Part shown: positions 10,040-10,788 of the stretch, piece by piece
Layout: each line of letters begins with the position of its first letter
Position numbering within the stretch: the first letter of the stretch is position 1
Assembly: GCA_000004695.1 (NCBI GenBank)
Contig: CM000153.2
Location: forward strand, 2,496,001-2,560,000
Length of the DNA stretch: 64,000 nt
From: Dictyostelium discoideum
Lineage: Eukaryota
Direction of reading: 5' to 3'
The notes under the pieces: generated by a model
What the model was told of the DNA's origin: nothing
What the model saw: the letters and a program-made list of their open reading frames with translations, nothing else
Database searches by the model: none
Program-made: the position numbers and the translations under genes

Positions 10040-10788
10040 TTATTTCTTTAATTCAAATGAAATTTTACAACCACATGATTTTATTGTATTTGGGTTTGAG
10101 GCAACAACAAAAGAACTTCTCATTAATGCTGTTTCATAATCAATGATTGAACCTTCCATCATTTCTAATGAAATTTTATCTATAATTACTTTAGCCCCAT
10201 TCCTAATAAATAATCTATAAAAAAAAAATAAAAATAAAAAAATAATTGTTAGCATGAATATTATATATATTTTTTTTTTTTTTTTTATAGATTATTTATT
10301 AGGAATGGGGCTAAAGTAAAAAAGTAAACTTACACATCATCATCTTGTAATTTATTTTCAACCTTTATTATATATTGATAACCACTACAACCACCCATAT
10401 CTACCATTACTCTAAGGAAAATATCAGTTGAGTCTGATTTCTTTTGTACACTATTTAATTCCTTAACGCAACTATCTGTTAAAGTTATATTATATTTTGT
10501 GATATTTTCATTAATTTCTTCTGCTTCTTTTGATAGTTGTTGTTGTTCAGTTGATGGTGTTGTTGTAGTTGTTGTAGTTGTTTGTTGATGTATTGGGTTT
10601 GATGTTGTAGTTGTTGTAAAAAATTTAAAATTGAAACTTTGTATATTTTTTATTGGTGTGTTGATATTATTATTATTATGATTATTATTGTTAATAATTG
10701 GTGTTATTATACTATGTGGTTTTGTAATAAAACTCCTTTTAAGGAAATATGGTAATGATGAATTTTTTTTAAAAATTGATCTTATCAT
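10040..10788 (-). CDS. iron-sulfur cluster assembly protein IscA/HesB family (mitochondrial ISCA1/2-like), 2 exons
   Basis: join(10788..10334,10214..10040). Exon 1 has an N-terminal presequence-like region plus poly-N/T linker, then the HesB core ITLTDSCVKELNSVQKKSDSTDIFLRVMVDMGGCSGYQYIIKVENKLQDD; donor is GT|GTAAGT. Exon 2 reads (V)LFIRNGAKVIIDKISLEMMEGSIIDYETALMRSSFVVASNPNTIKSCGCKISFELKK*. All three conserved cluster-ligand Cys are present (GGCSGY ... CGC). Confidence 0.8.
10189..10316. repeat. perfect 30-bp inverted repeat (10189-10218 vs 10287-10316, 68-nt spacer) spanning the IscA intron/exon-2 boundary
   Basis: Forward 10287-10316 atagattatttattaggaatggggctaaag is the exact reverse complement of 10189-10218 ctttagccccattcctaataaataatctat. 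On the gene strand, the arm at 10189-10218 is the intron's last 4 nt (atag) plus the first 26 nt of exon 2. Its complement at 10287-10316 lies 17 nt downstream of the 5' splice site, inside the intron. Confidence 0.9.

Follow-up and report, generated by a model that had tools for sequence, protein, structure and literature searches.

A Probable Template-Switch Scar Places the 3′ Splice Site of Dictyostelium discoideum isca2 within a Predicted Near-Perfect Pre-mRNA Hairpin

Introduction

Template-switch mutations, or quasi-palindrome fold-back errors, are known to make hairpins (the Ripley model; Loytynoja & Goldman 2017; Monttinen et al. 2023, PMC10710096). A single template switch is documented to suffice for a perfect hairpin stem, and most hairpins made in this way have been seen in introns (PMC10710096). 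In a full-text literature search, we found no paper on template-switch mutations in Dictyostelium. Here, we analyse a long inverted repeat in the gene isca2 of D. discoideum AX4, which lies in a 64-kb stretch of DNA (called the window throughout). As in the described template-switch mutations, the derived segment of this repeat is the reverse complement of a sequence tens of nucleotides away, its flanks are unchanged, and the perfect stem, which would have been made in one step, is intronic and in the sense orientation of the host gene. It differs from them in that the template includes a functional 3′ splice site, the polypyrimidine tract and 29 nt of the coding exon, so that the isca2 hairpin spans the intron-exon junction and exists only before splicing. 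A further difference is that the host is a social amoeba and that the mechanism is read from the pattern of the sequence. Template-switch hairpins are thus known, and what is unusual here is the presence of a live 3′ splice site and of coding sequence in the copied template.

The locus can also be compared to systems in which a stem meets a splice site. The SO-miRNAs (e.g., miR-34b; PMC3794580, PMC6097652) likewise have a hairpin over the 3′ splice site with the branch point within it, and a potential competition between RNase III and splicing, whereas the isca2 stem is longer, perfect, not conserved and known from its sequence and predicted fold, with one strand antisense to the host exon. 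In structured yeast introns, with their zipper stems and downstream stems (PMC12350175), local stems also decide the accessibility of AGs. However, the yeast stems are reported to occlude cryptic 3′ splice sites, whereas the isca2 stem is predicted to bury the authentic AG and the U-tract, and it pairs the 5′ part of the intron with exon 2 and not with the branch-point region.

Two further systems share the inverted-repeat architecture. MITEs and foldback elements resemble the isca2 repeat in that their inverted repeats are near-perfect, have a short spacer between them and lie in non-coding DNA rich in A+T, but the isca2 repeat is single-copy in the window, has one native arm, lacks a target-site duplication and replaces sequence. 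In plants, Allen et al. reportedly described in 2004 how miRNA genes are born by the inverted duplication of target-gene sequence. There, as at isca2, an inverted copy of coding sequence gives a perfect foldback that is complementary to that gene; the plant copy, however, resides at a separate locus with demonstrated small RNAs, whereas the isca2 copy lies in cis, in the same transcript.

Results

The Host Gene and Its Intron

The sequence-only reading from which this study started had proposed a two-exon IscA/HesB gene on the minus strand, and this model turned out to be right: the spliced product of 209 aa is 100% identical to the D. discoideum AX4 protein XP_638418.1 (UniProt Q54P40), which UniProt names "Iron-sulfur cluster assembly 2 homolog, mitochondrial". 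A brute-force search showed that the 119-nt intron is the only one whose removal, as a single GT..AG unit, reproduces the known protein. The gene is composed as follows:

isca2 exon 1, 10334..10788, minus strand: ATG at 10788-10786; ends ...GAT GAT GAT GT
isca2 intron (the sole one), 10215..10333, minus strand: 119 nt, phase 2, GTAAGT...ATAG
isca2 exon 2, 10040..10214, minus strand: begins A TTA TTT ATT AGG AAT GGG GCT AAA GTA; stop codon at 10040-10042

The product carries the Pfam domain Fe-S_biosyn (PF01521, E = 1.4e-12), its relatives of solved structure (PDB) are IscA, SufA and HesB-like proteins, and the C-terminal CGC motif of the IscA/HesB family is encoded by exon 2. By the domain and the motif in its sequence, isca2 is classed as an IscA/HesB A-type Fe-S carrier. 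Ahead of the domain, exon 1 (10470-10760) encodes a long low-complexity N-terminal extension with N-, T- and Q-runs, the length of which differs among close relatives, giving proteins of 209-219 aa. Exon-2 patterns gave 0 matches in metagenome contigs and 0 in prokaryotic genome contigs. We also considered a plus-strand gene that would use the mirrored "polyT-ATAG" site, and rejected it because of an immediate stop (ATT ATT TAT TAG).

Extent of the Inverted Repeat

A direct check of the sequence confirmed that 10189-10218 is the exact reverse complement of 10287-10316, the 30-bp arms described in the sequence-only reading, and also the geometry given there, with the arm at 10189-10218 made up of the final 4 nt of the intron and the first 26 nt of exon 2, and the other arm of intron nts 18-47. 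The pairing is a perfect 30/30, but the size of the stem had been underestimated, as it comprises 43-49 bp with a loop of 36-48 nt and not 30 bp with a 68-nt loop. The perfect inverted repeat measures 43 bp (10186-10228/10277-10319), and 48 of 49 positions match over 10186-10234/10271-10319, with 36 nt between the arms. When 4 mismatches and 1 gap are allowed, the arms extend inward to form a 134-nt quasi-palindrome (10186-10319) with a 13-nt spacer, which reads AUUCAUGCUAACA on the gene strand. The parts of the repeat are:

Source arm (3′ arm in the RNA), 10186..10234, minus strand: last 20 nt of the intron (U-tract and AUAG) and first 29 nt of exon 2
Derived arm (5′ arm in the RNA), 10271..10319, minus strand: intron nts 15-63; 48/49 reverse complement of the source arm, perfect over 10277-10319
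Whole derived segment, 10261..10316, minus strand: intron nts 18-73, 56 nt, A-rich on the sense strand
Spacer or apical loop AUUCAUGCUAACA, 10247..10259, minus strand: 13 nt, holding the putative branch site CUAAC (10248-10252), which was assigned from the consensus

Shuffle controls exclude chance as the source of this repeat, in line with the earlier view that it is not a low-complexity coincidence. The 26-nt core of the arms occurs only twice in the 64-kb window, in the two arms themselves, and 0 occurrences are expected from 100 shuffles. In 30 dinucleotide-preserving shuffles of the window (G+C 23.5%), in which repeats with at least 4 G/C and within 600 nt were considered, the longest perfect inverted repeat was 0-14 nt, compared to the 43 nt observed. 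The isca2 repeat ranks first among the inverted repeats of the window whether mismatches are allowed or not, and the remaining matches listed for the window are homopolymers or GAT/GAA repeats.

Low-complexity stretches elsewhere in the window give inverted repeats of their own. Pure T and A runs of about 30-43 nt (35874-35908, 36247-36277, 36377-36419 and 36484-36512) lie within 650 bp of one another and produce many trivial inverted repeats, and at 43002-43902, GAT/GAA (acidic) codon repeats near TC-rich reverse-complement stretches produce imperfect inverted repeats of 20-40 nt, which are of low complexity, unlike the isca2 repeat.

Orthologous Loci

We compared the isca2 gene in ten loci, the window and nine further dictyostelid loci, from another "D. 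discoideum" isolate (L001), two D. cf. discoideum, two D. citrinum, D. firmibasis, D. purpureum, Polysphondylium violaceum and Tieghemostelium lacteum. A single intron is present in each of the nine, at a codon position identical to that in the window (...gatgt|GT...AG|attatt...), which indicates that the intron is ancient. The gain of the intron by an introner-like insertion was therefore rejected, the position being common to the ten loci out to Polysphondylium and Tieghemostelium. The orthologous introns are 73-152 nt in length, and this variation consists mostly of changes in T-rich repeats; the longest, that of D. cf. discoideum GCA_054859235.1 (L003:2477-2628), reaches 152 nt through about five tandem copies of the 11-nt unit TTTTTTTATTC.

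The nearest relative is L001 (GCA_054859385.1, labelled Dictyostelium discoideum), which was aligned to positions 8040-12788 of the window and is collinear with it over 4.9 kb, with 166 mismatches (about 3.5%) and 71 gap openings. Its ISCA2 is 93% identical to that of the window and has 219 aa, compared to 209. Judged by the divergence over the 4.9 kb and the differences in ISCA2, L001 seems to be a sister species of D. discoideum rather than a strain of it.

The inverted repeat was sought in the nine orthologous loci and was found in none of them (0/9), the longest repeats of their introns being A/T runs of 9-14 nt. Nor did a scan of every orthologous locus retrieved give an inverted repeat comparable to that of isca2.

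Origin of the Derived Segment

AX4 and L001 have in common the first 17 nt of the intron, with one C/T difference, and the block TATTCATGCTAACAATTAT, while the branch-site block ATTCATGCTAACAATTAT is common to AX4, L001 and L002. Between the common blocks, L001 has 33 nt that are 88% T, compared to 56 nt that are 57% A in AX4; the 5′ part of the intron is likewise T-rich in L002 and L003. When aligned linearly to L001, the 56-nt segment of AX4 is identical at 17/56 positions. Once this segment is reverse-complemented and a few flanking bases are included, it matches the sequence further downstream in AX4 itself in 56 of 61 columns, 43 of which are consecutive and perfect, and the matching source stretch runs from just 3′ of the branch site to position +29 of exon 2. 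The strand composition flips exactly across the derived segment, from 88% T to 57% A, and collinearity with L001 resumes on either side of it, as a two-switch event requires.

The source-arm sequence is present at the same place in L001-L003, and the exon-2 start is found in 10/10 loci with species-level substitutions, so that the intronic arm must have been copied from the exon-2 arm. Among the ten loci, AX4 alone has a synonymous G (aat ggG gct), which it carries in both arms, and each orthologue with a Gly codon at this position has an A. Hence, the copy was made after a substitution on the AX4 branch. The comparison of orthologous loci, which the sequence-only reading had suggested, thus yielded a conserved source arm and a derived arm that is absent in 9/9 loci. 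The proposal that a small inverted duplication of the start of exon 2 took place recently gains support from these data, with the extension that the copy also takes in the polypyrimidine tract and the 3′ splice site, in all about 56-60 nt. On direct comparison of the sequences, the repeat is present, its derived state is that of the AX4 intron, and its source is the adjoining intron end and exon-2 start.

Over their inner 17 nt, the arms are set apart by 4 mismatches and 1 indel (tract lengths and a TA repeat). The copied length may have been about 49 nt only, or about 56-60 nt that later decayed by homopolymer slippage. In D. discoideum, base substitutions are very infrequent (2.47e-11 per site per generation), whereas slippage is frequent (PMC7466956). 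The imperfect pairing in the inner A/T part of the arms therefore fits later slippage of homopolymers, and the perfect outer arms tell little about selection. The microhomologies at the switch points (TTA; ATAAT/ATTAT) are hardly meaningful in 77% A+T DNA. As they are too short for such a composition, we infer, rather than observe, the exact switch points and the history of a single event.

We consider that the repeat is probably (with a probability of roughly 0.78) the scar of one replication template-switch, or fold-back, mutation in the lineage to D. discoideum AX4. The AX4 intron has a contiguous cluster of differences with collinear flanks, this cluster is the reverse complement of a nearby ancestral sequence, and its polarity is given by an outgroup comparison with nine loci. 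Further features of this type of mutation are that ancestral bases were replaced rather than purely inserted and that the spacer is small. During the copying of the ancient intron, the growing DNA strand would have left its template beside the branch-site block and copied about 56-60 nt backwards from the opposite strand or from its own nascent strand, a stretch that held the U-tract, the AUAG 3′ splice site and exon 2 up to position +29, before resuming on its first template 17 nt downstream of the 5′ splice site. The reverse complement of the intron end and the exon-2 start would in this way have taken the place of about 33 nt of T-rich intron. The coding sequence would have been left unaltered by the event, and the transcript would have gained a near-perfect hairpin of 43-49 bp, present in the unspliced pre-mRNA only.

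Predicted Fold of the Pre-mRNA

We examined the fold of the pre-mRNA around the repeat, as had been proposed together with the claim that the stem buries the 3′ splice site and the exon-2 start. The 221-nt segment has a minimum free energy of -68.6 kcal/mol, compared to -30.7 +/- 3.6 kcal/mol for shuffles (z = -10.6). In agreement with the claim, the predicted fold has both elements inside the stem, with P(unpaired) 0.00; the polypyrimidine tract is also buried, and the branch site is left in the loop. A partition-function prediction gave the following values:

3′ splice-site AG, 10215..10216, minus strand: inside the stem; P(unpaired) 0.00
Last 14 nt of the intron, minus strand: P(unpaired) 0.01 in AX4
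First 26 nt of exon 2, minus strand: P(unpaired) 0.00
Putative branch site CUAAC, 10248-10252, minus strand: P(unpaired) 0.94
5′ splice site GUAAGU, 10328..10333, minus strand: outside the stem, which begins 14 nt downstream; P(unpaired) 0.67

In the orthologues, the P(unpaired) of the last 14 intron nts is 0.15-0.76. The orthologous segments fold at -15 to -35 kcal/mol, compared to -67 kcal/mol for AX4, and a homologous stem is found in none of them. The excised intron alone folds at -12.4 kcal/mol, compared to -68.6 kcal/mol with its flanks; the strong fold needs exon 2, which implies that splicing would do away with the strong hairpin. For single-stranded DNA, a fold of -45.6 kcal/mol (z = -13) is predicted, and the isca2 site may for this reason also be mildly deletion-prone.

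Two possible outcomes of a splicing failure were read from the sequence. Retention of the intron would lead to an immediate stop (GTG TAA) and to a 152-aa product without the exon-2 cysteines, and the first AG outside the stem lies at position +35 of exon 2, where its use would shift the frame. In yeast, the AGs inside stems are the unused ones (PMC12350175), and so, by analogy, a cost to splicing from the buried AG of isca2 is plausible. As ISCA2 needs the cysteines of exon 2, we infer that productive splicing must still occur.

A Second Palindrome in the Window

A perfect 72-bp palindrome without a spacer is located at 28778-28849 (arm GAGAAATTAAATATTAATTAAATTTCAAAAAAAATC, centre ATCGAT). 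Its left arm holds the end of a plus-strand gene, with its last five codons, its stop (..ELREIKY*, stop at 28792-28794) and 19 nt of its 3′ UTR; homologues of this gene carry Pfam PF10192. The RNA fold of the palindrome is predicted at -36 kcal/mol (z = -8.95). A homologue search with the last exon of the gene gave only two proteins, which are 71% identical, a paralogue-level similarity. Judging by its sequence, this palindrome may be another fold-back copy, and as such the second case in the window with the end of a coding region as an arm. Two coding-end palindromes in one window hint that fold-back copies are perhaps a recurrent class of mutation in the D. discoideum genome.

Discussion

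The template-switch reading has to be weighed against other origins of the repeat. At first glance, so long and nearly perfect an inverted repeat outside coding DNA has the signature of a foldback or MITE-like transposon, and the insertion of such an element into the intron had been among the possibilities raised at the outset. Here, however, one arm consists of conserved sequence that belongs to the gene itself (its 3′ splice site and the start of exon 2, native in 10/10 loci), so that host coding sequence would be one terminus of the element. As read from the sequence, the derived 56 nt have neither terminal inverted repeats of their own nor a flanking direct repeat or target-site duplication, and they replace ancestral sequence instead of adding to it. 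No further copy of the arm, dispersed or otherwise, is found in the 64-kb window at up to 3 mismatches, and we regard a mobile element as extremely improbable. We attach just as little weight to the idea that the intron was structured from ancient times and that every other sampled lineage lost the hairpin, a history to which nothing points beyond the existence of the hairpin. It would need several independent losses, including those in L001, L002 and L003, which have the T-rich 5′ part of the intron in common, and it has to contend with the AX4-only G in both arms; parsimony disfavours it. Inverted duplications are also a known class of artefact, and a chimeric fold-back read could have entered the reference sequence during assembly or cloning. 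Such chimeras usually run on, whereas perfect collinearity with the orthologues is back on both sides of the repeat within 134 nt. Moreover, the gene model across the region is intact, and the arms are not identical in their inner A/T part (tract lengths and the TA repeat), which suggests decay in vivo after the event. An artefact is thus very unlikely.

A different question is whether the hairpin, whatever its origin, acts as a functional, lineage-specific regulator of isca2, either by attenuating splicing through the hiding of the 3′ splice site or as a substrate of Dicer (DrnB/DrnA) across the intron-exon junction. In the Dicer version of this model, dicing would compete with splicing, and small RNAs antisense to isca2's own exon 2 would be made. 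The predicted fold is extreme (z = -10.6), with the AG and the polypyrimidine tract at a P(unpaired) of at most 0.01 and the branch site at 0.94, and it places a stable stem-loop in the sense strand of the isca2 pre-mRNA, as is looked for in a miRNA or Dicer substrate. There are also precedents: at each of the two known intronic miRNA loci of D. discoideum, a single predicted hairpin is the origin of two neighbouring miRNA pairs (PMC6161686), animal hairpins over splice sites, with the branch point within the hairpin, compete with splicing (PMC3794580), and intronic template-switch hairpins can become miRNA genes (PMC10710096). Against a regulator, the hairpin is conserved in 0/9 orthologous loci, the closest included, and Rfam gave no match in 9000-11500 even at E <= 10, nor any in the whole 64-kb window at gathering thresholds (tRNA genes, searched for with ARAGORN, are likewise absent from the window). 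The arm core, on both strands and in U and T forms, does not appear in the available parts of the supplementary files of two D. discoideum miRNA surveys (PMC6161686 and PMC11014262), and the two intronic miRNAs reported in these parts lie in DDB_G0293106 and DDB_G0284713 and have sequences unrelated to the isca2 arm. In addition, perfect arms are expected from youth alone, given the substitution rate of 2.47e-11 (PMC7466956). A conserved splicing-regulatory structure was rejected, as a homologous stem is present in 0/9 orthologues. The suggestion of a structure that regulates splicing or has antisense potential therefore finds no backing in conservation (absent in 9/9 loci) or in Rfam, which leaves it with a possible young, lineage-specific effect, and a regulatory role appears unlikely to us.

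The hairpin is most likely a young, unselected by-product of the template switch, neutral or mildly harmful to splicing efficiency, and tolerated; both its lack of function and the molecular mechanism of its birth are putative. We think it quite unlikely that, in the NC4/AX4 lineage, the template-switch hairpin has been co-opted, or stands at the first step of co-option, for the autoregulation of isca2 in cis. If this were true, the nuclear Dicer-like DrnB, or the occlusion of the 3′ splice site, would compete with the spliceosome, so that each transcript would be either spliced or cut/retained, and small RNAs cut from the intronic arm, if any, would run antisense to exon 2 of isca2. We would then be looking at a small-RNA locus shortly after its origin, one that overlaps a splice site and targets itself.

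If, on the other hand, the structure is neutral, it would be an ordinary mutational scar, with the annotation unaffected and the gene model standing. The isca2 repeat would be a clean and datable natural example of a template switch, with the ancestral state kept in sister genomes, in which a 43-bp perfect hairpin was instantly created across a functional splice site of a gene that is expected to be important. It may thus serve as a natural experiment on the degree to which a short A+U-rich intron can cope with an occluded 3′ splice site, and it shows how hairpins and small-RNA precursors can arise in an amoebozoan genome.
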